Notes: generated by a model from the letters alone, not told the origin. A stretch of DNA of 41,352 nucleotides from Actinomycetes bacterium (GCA_021790075.1 JAJYIN010000002.1:1-41352); one strand, 5' to 3'. Counted from the stretch's first letter, positions 6,518 through 24,478 are shown. Translations and numbers: made by a program.

Positions 6518-7576
6518 TTATCCCACCGAGCCGTAACTGTGGAGCCCGGAAAGCAGCAGGTTGACTCCCAGGTAGGTGAATAGCACCACGACCATGCCGA
6601 TCACGGCCAGCACCGCGGAATGGCGGCCCCGCCATCCCCAGGTCAGCCGCGTATGCAGATAGGCGCCGTAGAAAAGCCAGGTGATGAACGACCAGGTTTC
6701 CTTGGGGTCCCAGCTCCACCAGCTGCCCCAGGCCTGGTCGGCCCAGATGGCGCCGGTGACGATACCGATGGTGACCATGGGGAAACCAAAGGCGATGCCG
6801 CGATAGCTGACCTCGTCCAGCACATCAAGTGAAGGCAGCCGCTTGGAAAATGAAGGCTTGGCGGCGCCCCGGCCGGCCAGGTATCCCAGCCCCAGAGCCA
6901 CTGTCAGCCCCAGGAGGCCGCCGGCCCCGATCTTGAGCCAGTCGCTGGTGGCGTAAATCTTGCTGACGGCGCCCGTTACCGGGTCGGCGATCTTGGCCGG
7001 ATTGGCCCAGGTGGAGCCCAGCCACAGCCCCAGCACCAGCCCCAGGAGGCCAAACATGATCAGGAATGCCATCACGACATTTTGATAGTGTTTTTTGAGC
7101 AGATATTCCTGGACGACATAGAAGAAGCCGGCGCCGAAAGACAGCGCAAAAAATCCGTAGGAAAGCATGGCGATGGAGACGTGGATCCAGAGCCAGTAAC
7201 TCTGAAGCGCCGGCACCAGCGGTTCGGGACCCGTGTAAAACACAAAGGCGACGCTGTTGATGATGAACGCCGTGGGCACCACCAGCGCCCCGGCGGCCCG
7301 GATGGGGTAAAACCGCTCGGCGATCAGATAGAAGAGCACGATGCCCCAGCCGAACACCGACAGCGATTCATACAGGTTCGACATGGGCGCGTGGCCCGAG
7401 CTGATCCAGCGCAGGACCAGCGCCACCGTGTGGGCCGTCAGGCCAAAGACCAGCAGGGCCGTGCCCAGCTTCGCGGTCATGGCATTGCGCGTGATCAGGT
7501 GCCAAATGTAAAGGCCGCTGCATACCAGGTACGAAATAACCGCAATAATGAAGAGTATCTCTTCTACCTTAGCCAT
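6518..7576 (-). CDS. ccsA: Cytochrome c biogenesis System II haem-handling protein (CcsA/ResC)
   Basis: It is polytopic, carries the WWD-type motif WGSWWSWDPKETWSFITW, and has conserved His residues. Confidence 0.88.
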   Translation of the reverse strand: MAKVEEILFIIAVISYLVCSGLYIWHLITRNAMTAKLGTALLVFGLTAHTVALVLRWISSGHAPMSNLYESLSVFGWGIVLFYLIAERFYPIRAAGALVVPTAFIINSVAFVFYTGPEPLVPALQSYWLWIHVSIAMLSYGFFALSFGAGFFYVVQEYLLKKHYQNVVMAFLIMFGLLGLVLGLWLGSTWANPAKIADPVTGAVSKIYATSDWLKIGAGGLLGLTVALGLGYLAGRGAAKPSFSKRLPSLDVLDEVSYRGIAFGFPMVTIGIVTGAIWADQAWGSWWSWDPKETWSFITWLFYGAYLHTRLTWGWRGRHSAVLAVIGMVVVLFTYLGVNLLLSGLHSYGSVG

Positions 7577-8720
7577 CTGCTCTTGCCTCCTGTCCCAGTC
7601 TCAACCTGAGTTCGGCAGTAATCCGCTCGAAATCGCGCTTGAATCCCAGCTTGGAGCGGTTGGTCCGCCCTCCCATCAAAAGCTCATCCGACTTGCCGAT
7701 TTTCAGCCAGATACGCCGGTGCGGGAAATACAGCCCGATCGTGATTCCCACCATCATCATCGCAAAACCCAGGTAGATCAGGGTCTTGCCGGGACGCCGG
7801 CTGATCTCGATCACGCTGACGTAACCGCGGCTTGACTGGTAATAACTCGATTGATAAAAATTCGTCCCCTCCACCTTGAGCAGGTCGAGAAAGGAAGACG
7901 TCAACCGCAACGGGCCGTTGACGGTGATCGTCTGCCGGACCACCTGCTGCCCCCCATCCAGGACCTGCAGGTCGGTGGAATAGAGGGATGGCCTGTAACT
8001 GACAATCCGGTTGCCGTCATAAACCGGATCGGATTTCATATTGAACCCGTAGCTCTTGAGCTGGTAATCCGTGTTGGGAACGTTGATGGTGGCGCCGTCC
8101 GGGACGTCGAGACGTTCCTGAAAACCAAAGACCGCGCCACTGATCGCTCCTATACAGATTACCAGAAAACTAAGATGAAACATTAGTGAGGAAAGACCGG
8201 AAAAGCGGCCCTTTTGCGCCAGCACCGAGCCGCTCTCACCTGCATGGAGCCGGTAACGCGAGCCCTTGAGCAGATCCCGGGCGGCCCCCATCCCCTTCTC
8301 GCCGGCCCCCTCGAAACTGGCGGCTTCCGGCTGGTTGGCCACAAAAGCGTCCTTGACGTCTAAACGCAGCTTAAAAGCATGCTTGACCGTGGTGGGAAGG
8401 CGGTTGAGGATGCAGACCGAAAGGTTCGCCATCAGCAGCGTCAGGAGGGACATGAACCACCAGGAAGTGTACATGTTGAAGAGGCCCAGGAAGTTGTAGA
8501 AATTGTACAGCGGGTTCTTGACCCAGTCCGACTGGAGGGCTTCCTCACCTTGGGGAATGATCGTGCCTATGATCGAGAGGATGGCAATGATGAACAGCAG
8601 CGTCAGCGCCAGCTTCATGGAGATGAGGAAATGGAAGATCCTCATCCCTAATGGAGGCGCCGGCTTTGACACCTCGGCTGTCTCGGATATGGCGCTCATT
8701 TCTTTGACGGAATCAGACAT
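7569..8720 (-). CDS. resB: Cytochrome c biogenesis System II protein (ResB/Ccs1/CcsB)
   Basis: The N-terminal FLISMKLALTLLFIIA helix, a large extracytoplasmic domain and a C-terminal TM segment match the family. It overlaps the resC start by 8 nt. Confidence 0.85.
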   Translation of the reverse strand: MSDSVKEMSAISETAEVSKPAPPLGMRIFHFLISMKLALTLLFIIAILSIIGTIIPQGEEALQSDWVKNPLYNFYNFLGLFNMYTSWWFMSLLTLLMANLSVCILNRLPTTVKHAFKLRLDVKDAFVANQPEAASFEGAGEKGMGAARDLLKGSRYRLHAGESGSVLAQKGRFSGLSSLMFHLSFLVICIGAISGAVFGFQERLDVPDGATINVPNTDYQLKSYGFNMKSDPVYDGNRIVSYRPSLYSTDLQVLDGGQQVVRQTITVNGPLRLTSSFLDLLKVEGTNFYQSSYYQSSRGYVSVIEISRRPGKTLIYLGFAMMMVGITIGLYFPHRRIWLKIGKSDELLMGGRTNRSKLGFKRDFERITAELRLRLGQEARADG

Positions 8721-10419: not shown

Positions 10420-10539
10420 GAAGTTCTCCTCAGAAATATCCGAAAAAGAAATGTTATGGGTTAACCGGCGAAGATGTTTGCGCCCCCGCTGTCCTGGCGG
10501 CTAGATTCATTATGCATCAACCTCATGGCGAAACCAAAT

Positions 10540-11079
10540 TTAACGCTCTTGGATCGGGGTTGTAGGGGTATTGGCATTACTGGGCAAGAAAATTCCCTGG
10601 ATTTTCCAGCGCCCTTCCTCCTCCACTAATGCCAGATCCAGTTTCACGTGATCTCCGGCCGGCTTGGAAAGCGCCTGGCCGGTGCTCGAGTCTACGTAAT
10701 AGCTGTTGTCGTCGAATTCCGCCACCACCTGGGCGATGGGGTAATTGTAGTCGTCCAGCCGCACCTGCAGGTTCTGGTAGTCACGCTTCTTGTATTTCCC
10801 CGCCGCCAGGTCCTGATTGATGGTGTTGGTGGCATCCTGAAGCGCGGTTCCCTTCATGGCCTGGGACAGAACGCTGGTGTCCTTGCCGGCGCTGGCAATC
10901 AGGTTCAGGTCGGCGGTAGCGTCGGCCACGACCTGGTCCTTGACCTGCTGGGATGGATCGTGCGCCGATGTCGCCGTGGTATCGACGGTATCGGGCTGGG
11001 TGCCTGAACCCCCGGAACCACACGATATAGCAACGAGAGCCAGAACGAGAACCAGAGGAACTGCTATAAACCGCATCAA
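10540..11079 (-). CDS. Lipoprotein of unknown function
   Basis: The signal peptide has a lipobox (LALVAISC-GSGGSG). The mature domain of about 155 aa ends in an NTF2/Tim44-like strand pattern (HVKLDLALVEEEGRWKIQG). Confidence 0.65.
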   Translation of the reverse strand: MMRFIAVPLVLVLALVAISCGSGGSGTQPDTVDTTATSAHDPSQQVKDQVVADATADLNLIASAGKDTSVLSQAMKGTALQDATNTINQDLAAGKYKKRDYQNLQVRLDDYNYPIAQVVAEFDDNSYYVDSSTGQALSKPAGDHVKLDLALVEEEGRWKIQGIFLPSNANTPTTPIQER

Positions 11080-11167: not shown

Positions 11168-12280
11168 TTAGGGCAGTGAACCCTTGCTATGGCATCCAAT
11201 GCAGATGCCGTCACCATTGCTGGTGAGCAGATACGGGTTCGAACTCGTGTGCGGGAAGTCCAGAGAAGTCGGATCGTTACTCGGATTTCCGTGGCACGAA
11301 GCGCAGAACGGCGGGTGGTTCTGGTGAACCACGCCTGATGCATCCGCGGTCTTGTTGAGCACCTTCTGGTCGTGGCAGGCTTCGCAGAACCCTTCGAACG
11401 TCGTCACCGGCGTCGTCGTGTGGTTCGGCCGCGCGGACAGCAGGAAGTACGACTGCACTTTGGCGAACGCAGTCGTATTGATGAACTGCTGACCCCACGC
11501 GTTGTCCGGGATGTTGTCCGGACCCGCCGCGCCGGTCGCGTTGTTGACGGTGTCAGTGCCGTCGACAGAACCATGAGGTGTGTGGCAAGAAGCGCAGTAG
11601 AGGCCCTTGGTGCCATTGTAGGTAGTCGCGTTGCCGTTATTGTAACGAGGCATGCCGTTAGAGCCGGCCGCGTAGGCGCCGGGGAACTGGCCCGTGCCCA
11701 GGCCGCTGGCCATCACCACCAGCGGGTTGGTGCCGCTGGGGATGGCGTCAGTGACCCTCACCAGCGTGCCGTCGAGCATGACGCCCAGGCTGTGGCCTGG
11801 AATCGCGTCGATACTGGTGGTATTACCACTGATCGGCGCGCTCCGCATGTTCTTCTGGTAGGCGGCATAGGACGAGACCGTCGGCAGCTGCGGCTGGTTC
11901 GGGCTGTTGGGCTCGCCGTACGTGCCCGTCGGGCCCAGGATCGACTGGGTCAGATCAGGCGGCGCATCGGTCCAGCCGAAACGCATGGTGTTGGGAGCCG
12001 CCGGATTCTCCGGAATCGGCGCCTGATCGCCGAACAGGCCGTGGCAGGTACCGCAAGTACCGGTGACCGTAGCCTCGCGCGTCAACACGTAATCACCCTG
12101 TGCGTCGTGAGGCTCGTGACACTGCAGACACGTGTTGGTCGAAGAACTGTAACCACCGTGAGGGCTAATGTCGCCAGCGACGAGGGGACCGGCTGCGGTT
12201 TCGGCCATGGCTGAAGAGGCGAAAGCCAAGATCAGCACGACAGGGAGAGCAACCGCGACTATAAGCGCTATCCTTTTCAT
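11168..12280 (-). CDS. Secreted hexahaem c-type cytochrome with OmcS-like motif layout
   Basis: Six CxxCH motifs are present (CLQCH, CGTCH, CASCH, CEACH, CASCH, CIGCH). The Sec signal is MKRIALIVAVALPVVLILAFASSAMA|E. I chose the start at the ATG at 12280, 11 nt after AGGAGG; the track ORF extends to 12337 without an SD. Confidence 0.9.
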   Translation of the reverse strand: MKRIALIVAVALPVVLILAFASSAMAETAAGPLVAGDISPHGGYSSSTNTCLQCHEPHDAQGDYVLTREATVTGTCGTCHGLFGDQAPIPENPAAPNTMRFGWTDAPPDLTQSILGPTGTYGEPNSPNQPQLPTVSSYAAYQKNMRSAPISGNTTSIDAIPGHSLGVMLDGTLVRVTDAIPSGTNPLVVMASGLGTGQFPGAYAAGSNGMPRYNNGNATTYNGTKGLYCASCHTPHGSVDGTDTVNNATGAAGPDNIPDNAWGQQFINTTAFAKVQSYFLLSARPNHTTTPVTTFEGFCEACHDQKVLNKTADASGVVHQNHPPFCASCHGNPSNDPTSLDFPHTSSNPYLLTSNGDGICIGCHSKGSLP

Positions 12281-12312
12281 ATATGTAGACACCTCCTTTC
12301 GCCTTGGAATAA

Positions 12313-12350
12313 TTGTCATCTTTGTGAATAACATCACAAATAAATGACAA
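12313..12350. promoter_or_regulatory. CRP/FNR-family-type operator: a perfect TGTGA-N6-TCACA inside a 38-bp imperfect palindrome
   Basis: TGTGA lies at 12323-12327 and TCACA at 12334-12338. They are flanked by TTGTCAT (12313-12319) and ATGACAA (12344-12350). The site sits 43-58 nt upstream of the cytochrome start codon. Confidence 0.5.
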
Positions 12351-12578
12351 CACCTTGTCGTCCAGGCGCAATGGCGGGCCAGTCTATAACTGGTTCAACA
12401 AAGGCGCGGACGAAATGGCCAAACGAGGTTGCAGTTAGCCTGCTGCTGGATGGGACCTACCTATCCCATGTCGTGTGAGGACTTTCGTGGTGTTGTGGCA
12501 CTTTATCAACAATCCGCTTCCGCTCGAGTGTCCGCTTTTGTAACCGCTGAGACTGCAACGCATACTACCCTGGGTATG

Positions 12579-12607
12579 AAGATACAGGCTGATCAGGATT
12601 TTGTCAA
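12579..12607 (-). promoter_or_regulatory. Candidate sigma-70-type promoter for the cytochrome / accessory / resBC operon
   Basis: On the minus strand, TTGACA (12607-12602) is followed by a 17-nt spacer and TATCTT (12584-12579). This would give a leader of about 290 nt. Confidence 0.45.
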
Positions 12608-12925
12608 TAACCCCGGGGGGGTAATTAGGACTAAATCCGTTCAGTAACTTTTATCCTTCAGACCCCTATACCCAGTGTGAGCATTTACGGGAATGAATCG
12701 CGCAAGTTTGAGGATGCTCCGCAACTCATGCCAGTATAGCCTAAAAAGCCCGTACCAAAGCGGTTTTTCCTCAAATGGCAAAGAAAGGAAAAAGCGCAAC
12801 ATAAGACTCGCCGACCTCTGGTACTCTGCCAACCAGAAATTTTAGCCGTCCGGGGATGAATAAAATATCGGGGAATTCCCCTATACAGAAACGGCGGCAA
12901 AACACAACAGGTGAATCATTAGCAC

Positions 12926-13567
12926 TCAGCAGCGCGCCAGGTAGAGGATGTCTGTATAAGGACGCCGGGTCGGCATTTCCACCACGCTGGGCGCGAATCC
13001 CGCCCCCTCAAGCGCCTCAAGCGCCTGCCTGCGGCTGAGGAAACAGAGGCGCTCCCGCTTTCCCTGCGTCACTCCAATGCTCGTGGCCAGCAGTTCCTGA
13101 AAATGGGTCCAGGCGTATTTCCAGCGCGGCGAGGTCTCCTGCGCCTTCCAGACCAGCAACCCGCCCGGCTTCAATTTCTGCCTGCAAATATTCAATATTT
13201 CTTCCTGCTCCTGCCGAGGCAGCAGATACATGACGTCCACGATGGTGATGACGTCGCAGGGGGACAGATCCGCTGTCAGGATGTCGCCGCAGAGAAAACG
13301 GATGCCGTCCCTCTTCCCCACGGTGGCCTGGGCGTGCCCGATTTTTTCGCAGGAAAGGTCGATGCCGGTAACATGCCGGTGACGCGAATCCAGCGCCATC
13401 ATGTTGGCAAACAGGCCGTGCCCGCAGCCCAGGTCGAGGATGTCCCCGGCATCAGGCACGTGGCGCTCGACGAAGTCGAGGTCGCTCAGCAGCACACGCG
13501 TCCGCAGGAAGGCCCTGGTGGCCAGCGGCGCCGCCCGGTAGAGTTTGAGCGCTTCAGTTGCCTTCAA
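12926..13567 (-). CDS. Class I SAM-dependent methyltransferase
   Basis: Motif I is ILDLGCGHGLF, followed by an acidic loop GIDLS and motif LKPGGLLV. It overlaps the upstream gene by 14 nt. Confidence 0.8.
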   Translation of the reverse strand: MKATEALKLYRAAPLATRAFLRTRVLLSDLDFVERHVPDAGDILDLGCGHGLFANMMALDSRHRHVTGIDLSCEKIGHAQATVGKRDGIRFLCGDILTADLSPCDVITIVDVMYLLPRQEQEEILNICRQKLKPGGLLVWKAQETSPRWKYAWTHFQELLATSIGVTQGKRERLCFLSRRQALEALEGAGFAPSVVEMPTRRPYTDILYLARC

Positions 13568-15056
13568 GCGACACGCTCCTGGTCTTCCAGTCCACCATCA
13601 CCGAGTTCTGACCCGGCTGCCGGTCCATGAAGCGAAGCACCTGGTCCCAGGCCAGGGGCAGGTCTTTTTCCTGGCCGCCACCGGCAGGTTTCAAGTACCC
13701 TTCGAAAATGACCACATGCCTGATGGCGGGACCGAGCCCGATACTGACGGCATTCTCCTCGGTCGGATCGAAGCTGAGACTCTGATACTGCGGCAGATAG
13801 TATCTTACCTGCTGGTCATCGAAGACGGCGACGATAAGCGTGTCCGCGGGGTTGAACCCGGCTCTTATGGTATCCACGCGCGAGCGGAGGATCTCATCCC
13901 GCGCCGCCAGCTTGTTGGCGCTGAACTGCGGCGTGAAAACAAGAAAGAGCAGCAGGTTGCAGACGGTCAGGAGGCCGGCGGTCAGCATCAGGAATCTCTT
14001 CCTGGCGTCCGCGCGGCTGGTGGCAGCATCAGCAAGCCATGTCAACCCCCAGGCCGAGGCCAGCAGGGCCGCCGGCAGGAAGCTGAAAACGTACCCGAAC
14101 TCGCCAACGTGGACGAATGCATAAAAAAGGACGCTGGGGACGATCCAGACAGCCAGGAACCAGAACCGGCGGTCATGCAGAACCGGCCGCCATCGTTTCC
14201 GCGTGAGGCCGGCGATGAACCAGGCCATGAGCGGCAACGCCGCCGCCAGGGCCCAGGCCAGGAAAGTCCATAATGCCCTCAGGTTGGCGCCCAGCGCCCC
14301 GAGCCCGCCGCCCAGTACGGATGAAAAGCGCAGCAGGTAGTCGCTCTGGGCCGATGACGCTTGCTGGTAGGCGGTAAAGCCACCCGAGAGCAGTGCGGAG
14401 GGAACATACCACGCCAGAACGCCCGCCGCCAGCAGGGCGAGCGCGCCGGCGATCCTCCAGGCCGGTTTCCGGTACAGGCCAACCAGCAGAAGGGGAAACA
14501 GGAAAGGGAGCAGGTCCTGGCGGAAGCCGGAAGCAATGCCCAGCAGAAGGCCGGCCGGAAGCACATAGGCCTGATTCCCATCCCAGGTGCGGTAGATGAC
14601 GCCGGCGGTCACAATGCTGAGAAACGCCAGCAGCGTATAGGGATAGGCGACCTCGCTGTACGCCCAAAAGCTCAGGCTGGTAGCTAGTAACAATGCTGCG
14701 ATCAACCCTACTTCGCGGCCGAAAACGCTCCGCCCCAGCCAGTAGAGGGCGGCGGAGGCCGCGGCCGCGAAAAAGACGCTTACCCATACCAGGGCGGCGT
14801 TGGGGTCGCTGATGAACTGATGGACCAGCCAGACGGTGCCCACGTAAAAGATGTGCCCCGGAGGTTGCGGCTGCCCGCGGGTCACGTCGAAATGTTCGAT
14901 GGCCCTGGTGTAGAGCACCGAGTCCCACGCGTATAGCATGGTGGTGCGGAAAGGAATCCGCGATAGGAAAGTCGCGAGAAAAAGGGCTGTGGTTATCGGC
15001 CAGTCCGGCATGGCCCACGGCCGGCCAGGACCGGGGGGAGAAGAACCCGGCTTCAT
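13554..15056 (-). CDS. Polytopic GT-C-fold membrane glycosyltransferase-like protein (ArnT/PMT/DUF2723-like) with a C-terminal soluble domain
   Basis: It has about 11-12 hydrophobic helices. The first-loop motif YAWDSVLYTRAIEHF...PPGHIFYV resembles GT-C families. The ATG at 15056 overlaps the dihaem cytochrome stop as ATGA. Confidence 0.55.
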   Translation of the reverse strand: MKPGSSPPGPGRPWAMPDWPITTALFLATFLSRIPFRTTMLYAWDSVLYTRAIEHFDVTRGQPQPPGHIFYVGTVWLVHQFISDPNAALVWVSVFFAAAASAALYWLGRSVFGREVGLIAALLLATSLSFWAYSEVAYPYTLLAFLSIVTAGVIYRTWDGNQAYVLPAGLLLGIASGFRQDLLPFLFPLLLVGLYRKPAWRIAGALALLAAGVLAWYVPSALLSGGFTAYQQASSAQSDYLLRFSSVLGGGLGALGANLRALWTFLAWALAAALPLMAWFIAGLTRKRWRPVLHDRRFWFLAVWIVPSVLFYAFVHVGEFGYVFSFLPAALLASAWGLTWLADAATSRADARKRFLMLTAGLLTVCNLLLFLVFTPQFSANKLAARDEILRSRVDTIRAGFNPADTLIVAVFDDQQVRYYLPQYQSLSFDPTEENAVSIGLGPAIRHVVIFEGYLKPAGGGQEKDLPLAWDQVLRFMDRQPGQNSVMVDWKTRSVSLEGN

Positions 15057-15298
15057 CTGGTTTCCCCTGTGGCTGTCCCAGTGGTCTGCTGGACGGGGTG
15101 ACAGGAAGTGCAATCCGGTTTCCGGGGATGGTCGGTCTTCGGCGCTCCCTTGACACCCGCCTCATGGCAGCTGTCGCAATCCTTATAGACGCCGGCGCCG
15201 GGGTGGCCTGCCGGTGGCGGCGAAGAACCGGTGAGGGCGCAGGCCCAGGCCGAAAAAGCCAGCACCAGGACTGCCGCCACGATTAGAATTGTTTTCAA
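15053..15298 (-). CDS. Small membrane-anchored or lipoprotein dihaem c-type cytochrome
   Basis: The 81-aa product has an N-terminal hydrophobic segment (ILIVAAVLVLAFSAWAC) and two CxxCH motifs (CDSCH, CTSCH). A TTG start lies 6 nt after GGGGAGGGG. Confidence 0.75.
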   Translation of the reverse strand: MKTILIVAAVLVLAFSAWACALTGSSPPPAGHPGAGVYKDCDSCHEAGVKGAPKTDHPRKPDCTSCHPVQQTTGTATGETR

Positions 15299-15339: not shown

Positions 15340-15819
15340 CTATTCGATGAAATACTTCATGCTGATCTTTTTGAACTCACGGCTGCTGAACAGGAGCTCA
15401 TACGCGGCGATGCCGACCTGCTGTGACAGCTCCGCCGCCATCCGGCGGCAATCTTCTTCGGATGCGCCGTGGATCATGGCAAAGAGATTGTAATCCCATT
15501 TGTCCGCCCGGGGGCGCTGGTAGCAGTGGCTGACCTCGTCGGCCGCGGCCAGGATTGCTCCGACTTCTTCGGCCCTCGCGTCCGGCACGTCCCACGCGCT
15601 CATGGCATTGGCTGTATAACCCAGCCGCTGGTGGCGCACCATGGCGCCGAAACGGCGGATGGTGCCGTCCTGCTTCCATTCCTGTACCTTTGCCACCACT
15701 TCCGCAGGTTCCATGCCTGCCTGGGCCGCGATCTCGGCAAACGGCTCGGGCGTGACCGGAATTGTTTCCTGCAGCAGACGGATCAGTTCCTGCTCTTTTT
15801 CGGAGAATATTCTATCCAT
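15340..15819 (-). CDS. Siroheme decarboxylase subunit (AhbA/AhbB, NirD/L/G/H family, Lrp/AsnC-like)
   Basis: The 159-aa product has an N-terminal wHTH (EQELIRLLQE) and a C-terminal NirD-like domain (RRFGAMVRHQRLGY.ANAMSAW). It is paired with a paralogue and overlaps it by 8 nt. Confidence 0.85.
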   Translation of the reverse strand: MDRIFSEKEQELIRLLQETIPVTPEPFAEIAAQAGMEPAEVVAKVQEWKQDGTIRRFGAMVRHQRLGYTANAMSAWDVPDARAEEVGAILAAADEVSHCYQRPRADKWDYNLFAMIHGASEEDCRRMAAELSQQVGIAAYELLFSSREFKKISMKYFIE

Positions 15820-22244: not shown

Positions 22245-22485
22245 CACCAATCACGCCTCCGGCGGCTTGTCCTGCCCATCGCCGGTGTGTGAAGCGCCCG
22301 CAAACCGGGTATTCTCAAACGGGTTGCAGGAAGTCCAGGCAGATGAGTCGAATGGAGACCGGGTTGGTATTTTGTCGCGACTATTGGTTATCGAGTAGCA
22401 AAAGCAACCGCTTTTTAGTATTATTCACGCCGGATTTGAACGATGCCAATAGTCTTGAATTCCGGCTTGAGGTTTCAGCCTGTAA

Positions 22486-23673
22486 ATGAAAGTCGCACTC
22501 GTATCTGAGTATTATTATCCTCTCCTCGGAGGAATAACCGAGCATGTTCACAACCTTGCCGTCTTCCTTGGCAGGCGGGGACATGATGTCACCGTCGTCA
22601 CCCATAATCTGAAGCCGCGCAAGCACCATCATTATCCCAGCGAGCTGGTGGACTTCCCGATAGTGCGCTTCGGCAAGGGGATGCCGATTTATTCGAACGG
22701 TTCCATTGCCCACATCACCGTGGGCAAGGGACTCTCCGGCAGCATGCGGCGCTTTTTCCAGCAGGAGCGGTTTGACGTGATCCATGCCCATTCCCCGCTC
22801 ACGCCGACGCTCCCCGTCCTGGCCCTGCGCGCCTCGAACGCCCCTGTCACCGTGGGCACGTTCCACACGTATTTCGACCGCAGCCGCAGTTACAGCCTGG
22901 TGCAGAAAAAAGCGGCTGCGCACATGAACATGATGGACGGCAAGATCGTCGTCTCGCAGGCATGCGTGGATGCTCTCTCGCGCTATTTCGAAACCGATTA
23001 CCGCGTCATCCCCAACGGGGTGGACCCCGGGTATTTCTCGCCCGACGCCCCTGTGCTTCCCGAGTTCGACGACGGTAAGCTGAATATACTGTTTGTGGGA
23101 CGGTTCGATCCCCGCAACGGCCTGCGCACGATGATCGATGCCTTCAAGATTGTGAAAAGGCAGTTCGGGAACTGCCGCCTGATCGTCGTGGGAGACGGCC
23201 CCCTGCGCCCGTATTACCGCTCCATGGTGGGGAAAAAGCTGGCTGCGGACGTTCACTTCGCCGGTCTGATCAACGGCGGGCGCCCCAATTACTACGCCTC
23301 CGCCGACGTCTACTGCACGCCGTGCACCAAGGCCTCGTTCGGCGTCGTCCTCCTGGAAGCCATGTCGTCTGCGACCCCCATCGTGGCATCCGACATCAAC
23401 GGCTACCGGCTGGTAATGGATGATGACCGGGAGGGCATCCTCGTTCCCGAACAGGACCCGGCCGCTTTCGCGGAAGCCCTGCTGCGCCTGCTGAAAGACC
23501 CGGAGCTCCGGCAGCGCATGGGCCGGGCGGGCCGCGAAAAAGTCCTGAGCACCTTTTCCTGGGAGCTGGTGGCCGCGCGCATCGAGCAGCTCTATCTGGA
23601 GCTGCTGGGCGAGAACGCCTCCGCCGGCATGCCGGACCCAGATCCGGAAAAGGTCATCGTTCTGAATGACTAA
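22486..23673 (+). CDS. GT4-family (GT-B fold) glycosyltransferase
   Basis: It begins MKVALVSEYYYPLLGGITEHV and has the C-terminal EX7E-region motif FGVVLLEAMSSATPIVASDINGY. Confidence 0.88.
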   Translation: MKVALVSEYYYPLLGGITEHVHNLAVFLGRRGHDVTVVTHNLKPRKHHHYPSELVDFPIVRFGKGMPIYSNGSIAHITVGKGLSGSMRRFFQQERFDVIHAHSPLTPTLPVLALRASNAPVTVGTFHTYFDRSRSYSLVQKKAAAHMNMMDGKIVVSQACVDALSRYFETDYRVIPNGVDPGYFSPDAPVLPEFDDGKLNILFVGRFDPRNGLRTMIDAFKIVKRQFGNCRLIVVGDGPLRPYYRSMVGKKLAADVHFAGLINGGRPNYYASADVYCTPCTKASFGVVLLEAMSSATPIVASDINGYRLVMDDDREGILVPEQDPAAFAEALLRLLKDPELRQRMGRAGREKVLSTFSWELVAARIEQLYLELLGENASAGMPDPDPEKVIVLND

Positions 23674-24478
23674 GAAGCAGGCCCTGCGGCGGCTGGCTTC
23701 CCTGACGGGTGGTCTTTTCGCCACGCAGGCCGCCGCCGCCGCCCACTGCCGGCGCCACGGCCGGCCTTGCCTCGGTAAGTTGATCATGTCAACCGGCGTC
23801 GCTGCCGACACCCTCCTCCTTTACGCCGTTCTGGTTCCAAACTTCCCTCTGCTGGGCAAGGTTTACCACCATGGGAACCGGAATGGAAACAAAGTGGCGC
23901 TCACCTTTGACGACGGCCCCCGGCCGCCCTACACCGGTCAGGTGCTGGACGCGCTGGGCGCCGCCGGCGTGCGCGCCACGTTTTTTGTCCTGGGTGAGAA
24001 CGCGCGCCGGTATCCGGAAGCCGTGCGGCGGATCGAGGCTGAAGGCCACCGGGTGGCAAATCACGGCATGGACCATGATATTCTCATGTTTGCCAGCGGA
24101 GCAGCGGCCCTGTCGCAGGTCATGGGCGCCGAGGCGGCGCTTCGGCAGGCAGGCGTACGCGATCCGGCGCTGCTGTTCCGGGCCCCGCATGGATGGCTGA
24201 GCCTTCCCGCTCACCGGGCAATCACCCGCCGAGGGTACCGGGTGGTGGGTTGGACCAAGGGCGTCTGGGACACGGCCAACCCGGGGGCGGACAGGATCGT
24301 GTCCCGGACCAGCGAGGTGCTGGCGCCGGGGAGCATCCTGCTGCTTCACGACGGCTGGGGAGGCATCTCCGCCGAAGACCGCTCCCAGACAGCGGCGGCA
24401 CTCCCGGCTATCATTGGGGAGGCCCGTTCCCGGGGGCTTGAATTTATCACCGTTGAAGAGATGATGCGGGAGGCCTGA
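23666..24478 (+). CDS. Polysaccharide deacetylase (CE4/NodB family) with an N-terminal membrane anchor
   Basis: NodB motifs VALTFDDGP, ANHGMDH and LLHD are present. The ATG overlaps the GT4 stop by 8 nt. An alternative start lies at about 23786. Confidence 0.85.
   Translation: MTKKQALRRLASLTGGLFATQAAAAAHCRRHGRPCLGKLIMSTGVAADTLLLYAVLVPNFPLLGKVYHHGNRNGNKVALTFDDGPRPPYTGQVLDALGAAGVRATFFVLGENARRYPEAVRRIEAEGHRVANHGMDHDILMFASGAAALSQVMGAEAALRQAGVRDPALLFRAPHGWLSLPAHRAITRRGYRVVGWTKGVWDTANPGADRIVSRTSEVLAPGSILLLHDGWGGISAEDRSQTAAALPAIIGEARSRGLEFITVEEMMREA

Follow-up and report, generated by a model that had tools for sequence, protein, structure and literature searches.

A GT-C glycosyltransferase and a partner methyltransferase within the haem-synthesis and cytochrome operon of an uncultured Thermoleophilia-type actinobacterium

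Introduction

In the ArnC/ArnD/ArnT pathway, a family 2 glycosyltransferase (GT2) makes a polyprenyl-phosphate-linked N-acyl-amino sugar, a deacylase of family CE4 frees the amine, and a glycosyltransferase of the GT-C fold transfers the sugar on the outside. Bordetella LgmABC has a design like that of ArnC-ArnD-ArnT and of the NaxD system. In the latter, found in Francisella and Acinetobacter, the YdjC protein NaxD deacetylates undecaprenyl-phosphate-linked GalNAc, and a GT-C enzyme then adds galactosamine to lipid A (PMC11279074). Here, we analyse a GT-C glycosyltransferase gene and an adjoining S-adenosylmethionine (SAM)-dependent methyltransferase (MT) gene in a 41,352-nucleotide stretch of DNA from an Actinomycetes bacterium (GCA_021790075.1, JAJYIN010000002.1:1-41352), hereafter the window.

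Sugar transfer has also been linked to cytochromes and lipoproteins. Cytochromes of the envelope and the extracellular space are investigated as electron conduits. Extra densities on OmcE of G. sulfurreducens, a nanowire, have been interpreted as glycans (PMC13712944); no enzyme is known to be tied to them. The OmcE clusters of Geobacter and Geomonas lie by resB/ccsB, followed by genes for GT2, GT4 and GT39 glycosyltransferases, a methyltransferase and TPR proteins; an enzyme-substrate link has not been demonstrated there either (PMC13712944). In streptococci, the GtrB/PgtC2 and Pgf systems pair a GT2 with a GT-C enzyme and O-glycosylate Ser/Thr-rich segments of lipoproteins (doi 10.1101/2024.05.05.592596). 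Lipoproteins feature prominently in the Pmt glycoproteome of Streptomyces, to which cytochrome oxidase subunit II also belongs (PMC6593405).

The GT-C and MT genes of the window are wired into the haem-synthesis and cytochrome operon of an uncultured Thermoleophilia-type actinobacterium. Together they stand for a GT-C subfamily not previously characterised, which has its own MT and a design like that of ArnT and NaxD, and which one actinobacterial family has recruited into this operon. By analogy with the systems above, the two enzymes may carry out the last two steps of a polyprenyl-phosphate sugar pathway that decorates the outer face of the membrane, with an envelope glycolipid or wall polymer as the likeliest acceptor. 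We advance this tentatively, and put it at somewhat short of an even chance.

Results

The GT-C and MT genes are coupled to each other and to a small cytochrome gene

The sequence-only reading of the window described a small dihaem cytochrome gene, the GT-C gene and the MT gene as translationally coupled to the ahb haem-synthesis genes. The junctions are as it gave them (Table 1). The stop codon of the dihaem gene (TGA, 15055-15053) overlaps the GT-C start codon (ATG, 15056-15054) as ATGA; the end of the GT-C gene overlaps the MT gene, which starts with TTG at 13567, by 14 nt; and a gap of 41 nt separates the dihaem gene from ahbA, which ends at 15340. The dihaem gene itself has a TTG start preceded by the Shine-Dalgarno sequence GGGGAGGGG. 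An alternative GT-C start at M16 would replace the ATGA overlap by a 41-nt gap; the Shine-Dalgarno sequence is better at M1.

We compared the locus across a family set of 24 genomes, which provided 13 complete GT-C loci for examination and six genomes that are GT-C-negative. Each of the 13 complete loci has its GT-C gene as the immediate downstream neighbour of ahbA or the dihaem gene, at a distance of -28 to +70 nt. Orthologous GT-C starts lie -28 to +49 nt from the stop codon of the dihaem gene, or -4 to +70 nt from ahbA. Wherever an orthologous family locus carries the MT gene, it overlaps the GT-C gene, by 8-23 nt (8/8 loci). The coupling of the GT-C and MT genes is conserved and, in line with the earlier proposal, the gene order predicts that the pair is co-transcribed with the ahb genes and the small cytochrome gene across the whole family.

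The membrane protein has a GT-C fold and invariant catalytic-type residues

The 500-aa membrane protein is a GT-C glycosyltransferase, as proposed from the sequence, by Pfam match, AlphaFold2 model and Foldseek search alike. Its sole Pfam match is PMT_2 (PF13231; 31.9 bits against a cut-off of 26.1), a model matched by 28 of the 30 GT-C family members. Nine of the 30 match the TMEM260-like model PF11028 (best E 1.8e-8); the window protein does not at E <= 0.01. The AlphaFold2 model, built on 30 homologues (predicted local distance difference test (pLDDT) 89.8; predicted template modelling score (pTM) 0.89), has ~12 transmembrane helices and a ~100-aa C-terminal outer alpha/beta domain that is not TPR. 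ArnT heads the Foldseek list (5f15; query template modelling score (TMq) 0.58; 13% identity). All 18 matches at E <= 1e-3 are GT-C enzymes (ArnT, ALG9/12, AglB, STT3, PglB, AftA and Emb), and Pmt4 comes next, at E 1.6e-3. Sequence and profile searches of the PDB gave no match to the protein, ArnT included.

In the first outer loop, all 30 sequences compared, the most distant at 28% identity, share Asp45 of the motif YAWDSVLY. Further invariant motifs are S46, PxPPG67, AxPY140, GxRxD181, GG226 and H..G..GY. From this conservation and the predicted structure, the protein is apparently active as a glycosyltransferase.

Classification with hidden Markov models (HMMs), as the sequence-only reading had suggested, placed the protein with PMT_2 and GT-C enzymes and in none of the named subfamilies GT39 PMT, ArnT/GT83 and STT3/PglB/AglB. 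Membership of the canonical GT39 PMT enzymes was rejected on the absence of PF02366 and PF16192 from all 30 members (E <= 0.01) and on the presence of Asp45-Ser46 in place of the DE motif. For ArnT/GT83, there is no match to the NCBIfam ArnT model (E <= 0.01), the likeness is structural only, and the host belongs to the Actinomycetota. STT3/PglB/AglB was set aside in view of the lack of PF02516 in the 30 members, the lack of a WWDYG motif, and a C-terminal domain of only ~100 aa. The archaeal STT3 model TIGR04154 gives an 18-bit local match over 41 residues, against a cut-off of 450. The pattern WW[DE][YWF]G is absent from every long open reading frame (ORF) of the 88%-complete genome, indicating no STT3-type oligosaccharyltransferase. 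Annotations as 'glycosyltransferase family 39' or DUF2723, and UbiG-like names for the MT, need qualification.

The MT is a functional partner of the GT-C protein

The 213-aa MT matches PF13649 (56.5 bits), PF13489 (50.6 bits) and PF08241 (49.1 bits). In its SAM-binding motif, D45-L-G-C-G-H-G51, residues G47-G51 are invariant and D45 and L46 are found in at least 90% of sequences. The AlphaFold2 model (pLDDT 87.1) superposes on many class I methyltransferases with template modelling scores of 0.6-0.7. Assignment to UbiG or UbiE was rejected (39.8 bits against a cut-off of 103 for UbiG, and 21 bits against 216 for UbiE). A profile search of the PDB and Foldseek returned only generic class I small-molecule methyltransferases, such that the substrate of the MT is not readable from structure. 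The Pfam model for NodS is matched weakly by the window MT (E 4.6e-7) and by the MT of locus L093 (E 1.5e-7), a likeness limited to the Rossmann core; NodS-like N-methylation would be a guess by analogy.

The proposal that the MT works with the GT-C protein is borne out by the recurrence of the overlapping pair in Chloroflexota and Thermomicrobiota. In loci L076, L093 and L131, the two genes overlap by 4-16 nt, and their products are 35-37% (GT-C) and 48-50% (MT) identical to those of the window. This recurrence is in keeping with a lipid-linked donor that would be tailored by methylation.

Several relatives outside the family lie in glycan-related contexts

A scan of one genome per species gave 410 relatives of the GT-C protein, and gene context was read in the best 80 loci, of which ~62 lie outside the family. 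These out-group loci, from Chloroflexota, Thermomicrobiota and Methanobacteriota, encode proteins with 30-41% identity. In none of the ~62, Methanobacterium included, is there an ORF with at least two CxxCH motifs, or an ahb or res gene, within 10 kb. Homologues are also present in cytochrome-free methanogens, and the homologue P0064 sits in a polysaccharide cluster with GT4, Bac_transf, Wzz and LytR genes. The sequence-only reading had held that classification as a lipid- or cell-wall-specific enzyme conserved in genomes lacking such cytochromes would refute a cytochrome-linked role. Half of this applies: the wider family recurs beside GT2/YdjC or polysaccharide genes and in cytochrome-free organisms; the orthologous clade, on the other hand, occurs only in the haem/cytochrome operon.

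In four out-group loci (L043, L076, L093 and L131), the GT-C gene is contiguous with genes for a GT2 and a YdjC protein, in the order GT2-YdjC-GT-C(-MT). L043, which lacks the MT, is the locus of P0059, the closest out-group homologue. A second GT-C paralogue of 502 aa is encoded there (L043:3311-4819) and overlaps the first by 4 nt, giving GT2-YdjC-GT-C-GT-C. In a further locus, L130, the YdjC and MT genes adjoin, and a GT2 and a GT-C gene lie within 6 kb. GT2, YdjC and MT genes are absent beside most other sister-clade and out-group GT-C homologues. A maximum-likelihood tree places the Thermoleophilia clade (SH-aLRT 100) as sister (86) to a clade that holds all the module loci.

The GT2 proteins of the module resemble the polyprenyl-phosphate sugar synthases PgfS, PpgS, ArnC and dolichyl-phosphate hexose transferase, all far below cut-off; PgfS is the best or second-best NCBIfam match (52-73 bits against a cut-off of 500). 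The YdjC proteins resemble deacetylases of N-acetylhexosamines (GlcNAc-type). The genome of the window encodes a relative of each. A GT2 that is 41-44% identical to the module GT2 is on contig C129, where it adjoins tatC and is convergent with a gene for a CE4 deacetylase. The sole YdjC gene is on C130, beside the gene for glucosyl-3-phosphoglycerate synthase (GpgS), and is unlinked to both the window and C129.

Two of the module loci, from one Thermomicrobiales-type lineage, have a haem connection of their own. At L093:5427-17335 and L131:1075-12989, the gene order is secD-secF-GT2-YdjC-GT-C-MT-(pseudouridine synthase)-MerR-ferrochelatase-HemQ/ChdC-Peripla_BP_2-FecCD. The four-gene module is flanked by secDF on one side and by a group of MerR, ferrochelatase, HemQ (ChdC) and haem/iron ABC genes on the other. 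Haem-synthesis genes thus adjoin it a second time, independently and from the different, coproporphyrin-dependent pathway; at ~2% chance per independent context, this is no more than suggestive.

The GT-C genes occupy a variable cassette within the family

The window belongs to a ~2-Mb metagenome-assembled genome whose relatives, from subsurface samples, are labelled Thermoleophilia or 'Actinomycetes bacterium'. GT-C orthologues with 50-62% identity are present in 18 of the 24 family genomes, and the MT gene in eight of 12 related loci (nine of 13 with the window). In the other six genomes (G001, G004, G013, G017, G019 and G021), ahbA is joined straight to resB without a GT-C gene. No GT-C relics were found in the ahbA-resB gaps of these six cassette-free genomes, and their state is hence compatible both with loss and with never having gained the gene. 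The ahbA-resB slot is a variable cassette site, where cytochrome-related genes come and go. Since the six genomes keep ahbABCD and resBC, the GT-C protein is not needed for haem synthesis or cytochrome c maturation. Second GT-C copies, in unrelated contexts, are nested inside the ahbA-linked clade; that of the window genome is on C72 (47-49% identity).

The dihaem cytochrome gene is carried by 10 of 13 GT-C-positive loci, against none of the six GT-C-negative loci; in the remaining three GT-C loci, the GT-C gene is directly behind ahbA. Its haem-binding motifs in the window are CDSCH at residue 41 and CTSCH at residue 63. All 10 orthologues have a signal peptide that ends in a lipobox, [GA]-C-A-[LF], followed by a tether of ~10 residues of the type TGSSPPP, two CxxCH motifs and two more conserved His residues. 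These features mark the protein as a small, lipid-anchored cytochrome of bis-His type.

A secreted hexahaem cytochrome is encoded downstream of the MT gene; 11 of 13 GT-C-positive and one of six GT-C-negative genomes carry its module at the locus. The co-occurrence of GT-C genes with such cytochromes, which the sequence-only reading had proposed to examine, holds within the family to the extent that a hexahaem homologue is present in 17 of 18 GT-C-positive and three of six GT-C-negative genomes (Fisher P ~0.035, uncorrected for phylogeny). This association is weak, given that the genes adjoin each other in a single cassette and that the genomes share ancestry. Moreover, exceptions run both ways. 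A GT-C gene is lacking in G004, where the hexahaem module stands upstream of ahbB, and in G013 and G017, where ORFs of ~1370 aa contain hexahaem-type domains. Conversely, G020 (L015, on G020:C3) keeps the dihaem, GT-C and MT genes intact, and the adjoining hexahaem module has been deleted. The gap between MT and resB in G020 (L015 6369-7323) retains relics of the lipoprotein (residues 99-159, E 1.6e-19) and the NHL protein (residues 306-342, E 1.6e-7), and a hexahaem homologue is on another contig, G020:C23.

Hexahaem-type domains ~50% identical to the cytochrome of the window occur in large fusions of ~1370 aa in one genus (G003:C35:34951-35745, G013:C52:2640-3434 and G017:C96:7581-8381).

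The hexahaem cytochrome module is probably a separate transcription unit

The earlier suggestion that the GT-C protein acts on the hexahaem cytochrome drew on the Ser/Thr/Pro-rich loops of the latter and on about seven N-x-S/T sequons. The composition and the count are correct: the protein is 18.5% Ser plus Thr and 8.7% Pro, and has exactly seven sequons (NTT172, NAT236, NGT241, NAT266, NTT287, NHT305 and NKT328). A specific tie between the GT-C protein and these sequons does not stand. The cytochrome has no excess of them: 5000 shuffles gave 4.2 +/- 1.8 (P = 0.11), and the count of seven follows from its Asn/Ser/Thr-rich composition. Nor are they conserved: orthologues have 1-3 sequons each, the sole common position being PNH[ST], which is probably a structural or haem-ligand motif. 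The GT-C protein has no STT3 features. A sequence search of the PDB with the hexahaem cytochrome returned no relative, OmcS included.

The hexahaem gene is 588-645 nt downstream of the coupled unit and outside it. A conserved sigma-70-like promoter (TTGACA-17-TATCTT) is predicted at 12607-12579, followed by a leader of ~190 nt whose DNA is near-invariant in 10 genomes of six genera, across which the hexahaem protein is only 36-42% identical. Copies of promoter and leader were located at 12400-12607 (-) in the window, at L014:11376-11666, L016:11210-11500, L017:7976-8265(-) and L021:10537-10827, and also in L022-L024. The leaders share the blocks CAGGGTAGTATGCGTTGCAGT...GGACACTCGnGCGGAAGCGGA and ...ACTGCAACCTCCATTTGGCCAC. 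RNAalifold predicts a long-range helix between GUUGCAGU and ACUGCAAC, together with a GCGGG/CCCGC pairing; since these pairs do not vary, there is next to no covariation. An Rfam search of the spacer gave no match. We put the leader forward as a possible new cis-regulatory RNA for the cytochrome module, which by its predicted promoter and leader starts a regulated transcript of its own. With its predicted separate transcription unit, its occurrence without a GT-C gene in three genomes and the retention of the GT-C gene in G020, the hexahaem cytochrome is not specifically tied to the GT-C protein, contrary to the sequence-only reading.

A variant of the leader motif, CAGGGTAGATAGAGTTGCAG, is found in G019, which lacks a hexahaem homologue; it lies at ~15794 (+) in L033 (G019:C18), with ahbA ~10 kb upstream. 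The hexahaem gene is the first gene of a facultative module of the order hexahaem-lipoprotein-(pentahaem)-TPR-NHL. In most orthologous loci (L014:13294-14225, L016, L017-L024 and L046-L060), a gene for a pentahaem cytochrome (278-309 aa, five CxxCH motifs) stands between the lipoprotein and TPR genes. The window has only a 120-nt gap at that position (10420-10539), which indicates that the pentahaem cytochrome was lost at this locus.

Layout of the array

All genes of the array are co-directional on the minus strand. Its upstream part encodes SurE, a HAD protein, CobA/HemD, AhbC (NirJ1-type), AhbD, AhbB and AhbA. The dihaem cytochrome, GT-C, MT, spacer, hexahaem cytochrome, lipoprotein, TPR protein and NHL propeller make up the middle, and the array ends with ResB, CcsA/ResC, a SirC-like NAD-binding protein, HemA and HemC. 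Elsewhere in the window, a minus-strand ORF without a Pfam match (22381-23811) overlaps a plus-strand ORF (22486-23673); its family-wide conservation in tblastn is probably an antisense shadow of the plus-strand gene.

Table 1. Features of the GT-C/MT locus and its surroundings in the window
Feature	Position	Strand	Details
ahbA (sirohaem decarboxylase subunit)	15340..15819	(-)	PF17805 115.7 bits, PF22451 56.7 bits; last haem-synthesis gene ahead of the cassette
Dihaem c-type cytochrome, predicted lipoprotein (Cys20), short Ser/Pro-rich tether	15053..15298	(-)	81 aa, two CxxCH
GT-C fold glycosyltransferase (PMT_2 / TMEM260-like clan)	13554..15056	(-)	500 aa, PF13231 match
Class I SAM-dependent methyltransferase (MT), cytoplasmic	12926..13567	(-)	213 aa, PF13649 56.5 bits
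Spacer: predicted promoter 12607-12579, leader ~12572-12400, then TGTGA-N6-TCACA site	12338..12925	(-)	Promoter scan, DNA alignment
Secreted hexahaem c-type cytochrome, probable ATG 12280	11168..12337	(-)	Six CxxCH, Paired_CXXCH_1 58.9 bits
resB (7569-8720) and ccsA/resC (6518-7576), System II cytochrome c maturation	6518..8720	(-)	PF05140 251.6 bits, PF01578 184.2 bits

Discussion

What would a GT-C enzyme and a methyltransferase do in a haem operon? The evidence says that the two proteins belong to a general pathway of cell-surface sugar decoration that is also present in organisms without cytochromes. The combination of a GT2, a deacylase and a GT-C enzyme is an established design, and on that basis we read the window pair as the tailoring and transfer steps. 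In the pathway that we envisage, a GT2 would load a sugar, probably an N-acetyl-hexosamine, on polyprenyl phosphate at the inner face of the membrane, and in the relatives a YdjC deacetylase would free the amine. The cytoplasmic MT would then tailor the lipid-linked sugar, possibly a de-N-acetylated hexosamine. After flipping across the membrane, the sugar would be transferred by the GT-C enzyme, via the invariant Asp45, to an extracytoplasmic acceptor. The GT-C gene, with or without the MT gene, may have been captured into the ahbA-resB slot in the Thermoleophilia family, and modification of the surface may matter when cytochromes are exported. The observed fold, conserved residues, gene coupling, synteny and module of the relatives are the foundation of this scheme, whose donor chemistry, methylation step and acceptor are drawn from context.

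To our knowledge, all characterised systems of the GT2, deacetylase and GT-C design modify glycolipids or wall polymers. We rank an envelope acceptor first because of the acceptors in these systems and because ArnT is the best structural match. Several observations weigh against this choice. The GT2 and YdjC genes are not adjacent to the GT-C gene in the window, and the YdjC protein, being encoded beside GpgS, may serve another pathway. Even in the sister clade, the GT2-YdjC context is found in only ~4 of 16 loci, which leaves an amino-sugar donor weakly founded for that clade. Neither the fold search nor the HMMs separate a lipid acceptor from a protein acceptor, and nine of the 30 members match the TMEM260-like model, which describes a protein O-mannosyltransferase. 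The placement in the haem/cytochrome operon, after a cytochrome with the Ser/Pro-rich tether of a lipoprotein, persists over a GT-C identity of ~55% and at least seven genera. This persistence, together with the retention of the trio in G020, argues for a cytochrome-related acceptor. Finally, pairs of GT2 and GT-C enzymes that glycosylate Ser/Thr-rich lipoprotein segments do exist in monoderms (doi 10.1101/2024.05.05.592596).

The main rival is O-glycosylation of the cytochromes or lipoproteins, the proposal of the sequence-only reading in an O-linked form. The GT-C enzyme would move an MT-tailored sugar to Ser/Thr residues of the dihaem tether, and maybe to the hexahaem loops and the Ser/Thr-rich linker of the lipoprotein encoded at 10540-11079. 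Such a sugar would protect against proteolysis or tune the surface. The ATGA coupling and the confinement of the dihaem gene to GT-C-positive loci (10/13 against 0/6) speak for this idea, as do the lipobox and TGSSPPP-type linker conserved in its 10 orthologues, the survival of the trio in G020 and, with the caveat that it is uncorrected for phylogeny, the hexahaem co-occurrence (17/18 against 3/6; Fisher P ~0.035). The TMEM260-like matches point the same way, and SecDF adjoins the module in L093 and L131. Precedents are the OmcE glycan densities and the glycosyltransferase and methyltransferase clusters by resB/ccsB (PMC13712944), the streptococcal GtrB/PgtC2 and Pgf systems with their Ser/Thr-rich lipoprotein targets, and the lipoprotein-rich Pmt glycoproteome of Streptomyces (PMC6593405). 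However, three of 13 GT-C loci do without the dihaem gene, and hexahaem homologues do without GT-C in G004, G013 and G017. As the co-occurring genes adjoin in one cassette within one family, a single event followed by inheritance may account for the pattern. Furthermore, the hexahaem module has a predicted promoter and leader of its own, no cytochrome is encoded near the ~62 out-group homologues, the enzyme departs from canonical GT39 proteins (PF02366 and PF16192 lacking, and D-S for D-E), and the tether has only ~10 residues. On balance, we regard O-glycosylation of these proteins as rather unlikely. The narrower proposal of a dedicated monoderm system for cytochrome glycosylation, in which the pair is made together with haem and O-glycosylates the dihaem cytochrome, and possibly the hexahaem cytochrome and the lipoprotein, with a methylated (amino)sugar, strikes us as unlikely, and more of a long shot than O-glycosylation in general.

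Two other roles are far less probable. N-glycosylation of the hexahaem sequons, with the GT-C protein as oligosaccharyltransferase, is close to refuted. In its favour are the seven sequons of the window's hexahaem cytochrome, the structural likeness to STT3, AglB and PglB, which any GT-C enzyme would show, and the 18-bit archaeal STT3 match over 41 residues. Nonetheless, sequon number is at the level of composition, the orthologues have only 1-3 with PNH[ST] in common, PF02516 is lacking in all 30 members, and WWDYG is lacking in the protein and in the long ORFs of the 88%-complete genome. We consider it very improbable, too, that the GT-C-like protein, rather than acting as a glycosyltransferase, assists haem export or System II cytochrome c maturation. 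That its gene lies between the ahb genes and resBC would suit such a role, but it is absent from six of 24 genomes that keep ahbABCD-resBC, its GT-C catalytic-type residues are invariant, its homologues are found in glycan contexts and cytochrome-free methanogens, and its partner MT also travels with GT2 and YdjC genes.

The significance of the pair depends on which acceptor is correct. If the sugar is placed on an envelope glycolipid or wall polymer, then Chloroflexota, Thermomicrobiota and Thermoleophilia would share an uncharacterised four-component pathway (GT2, YdjC, MT and GT-C), and the ArnT/NaxD design, enlarged by a methylation step, would also apply to monoderm envelopes. If instead cytochromes are modified, then the two genes would be a minimal handle on cytochrome glycosylation in a lineage of Gram-positive type. 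A dedicated system would moreover provide cytochrome glycosylation with its first genetically defined pair of enzyme and substrate, and the Thermomicrobiales module by ferrochelatase and HemQ would reflect a wider, unrecognised link between a sugar pathway and haem proteins.

Comparison with known systems

The closest parallels in logic are the Arn and NaxD systems. As in these, a GT2, a deacylase and a GT-C enzyme are combined, contiguously so in sister-clade loci, and ArnT is the top fold match of the window protein. The differences are that membership is not borne out by sequence (no ArnT or ArnC equivalog match), that the host, as an actinobacterium, presumably lacks lipid A, and that the set includes an additional MT. 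In the window, moreover, the GT2 and deacetylase genes are unlinked and the pair lies inside a haem operon. The chitooligosaccharide deacetylase NodB and the N-methyltransferase NodS offer a parallel for the methylation step, since a deacetylase followed by a SAM methyltransferase acting on a hexosamine is reminiscent of the adjacent YdjC and MT genes in L130. The MT match is limited to the Rossmann core, however, the substrate here would be lipid-linked, and methylation may be at N or O.

The monoderm systems GtrB/PgtC2, Pgf (PgfS/PgfM1/PgfM2) and the actinobacterial Ppm1/Pmt (GT39) likewise pair a GT2 that synthesizes a polyprenyl-phosphate sugar with a GT-C enzyme, and O-glycosylate outer Ser/Thr-rich segments of membrane proteins as well as lipoproteins. 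They differ from the window locus in that its GT-C protein is not a GT39 and in that the deacetylase and MT have no counterpart in them. The OmcE clusters resemble the locus in gene content, with cytochromes beside resB/ccsB accompanied by glycosyltransferases (including a 'family 39' GT-C), methyltransferases and TPR proteins. Geobacter is diderm, whereas the host here is monoderm; the clusters contain 15-70 genes against two here; and Geobacter is not represented in the best 80 of the 410 homologous loci. Among the described systems, it is the Arn and NaxD design to which the GT-C enzyme and its MT partner are most readily compared, here with a putative methylation step added and a place in a haem and cytochrome operon.

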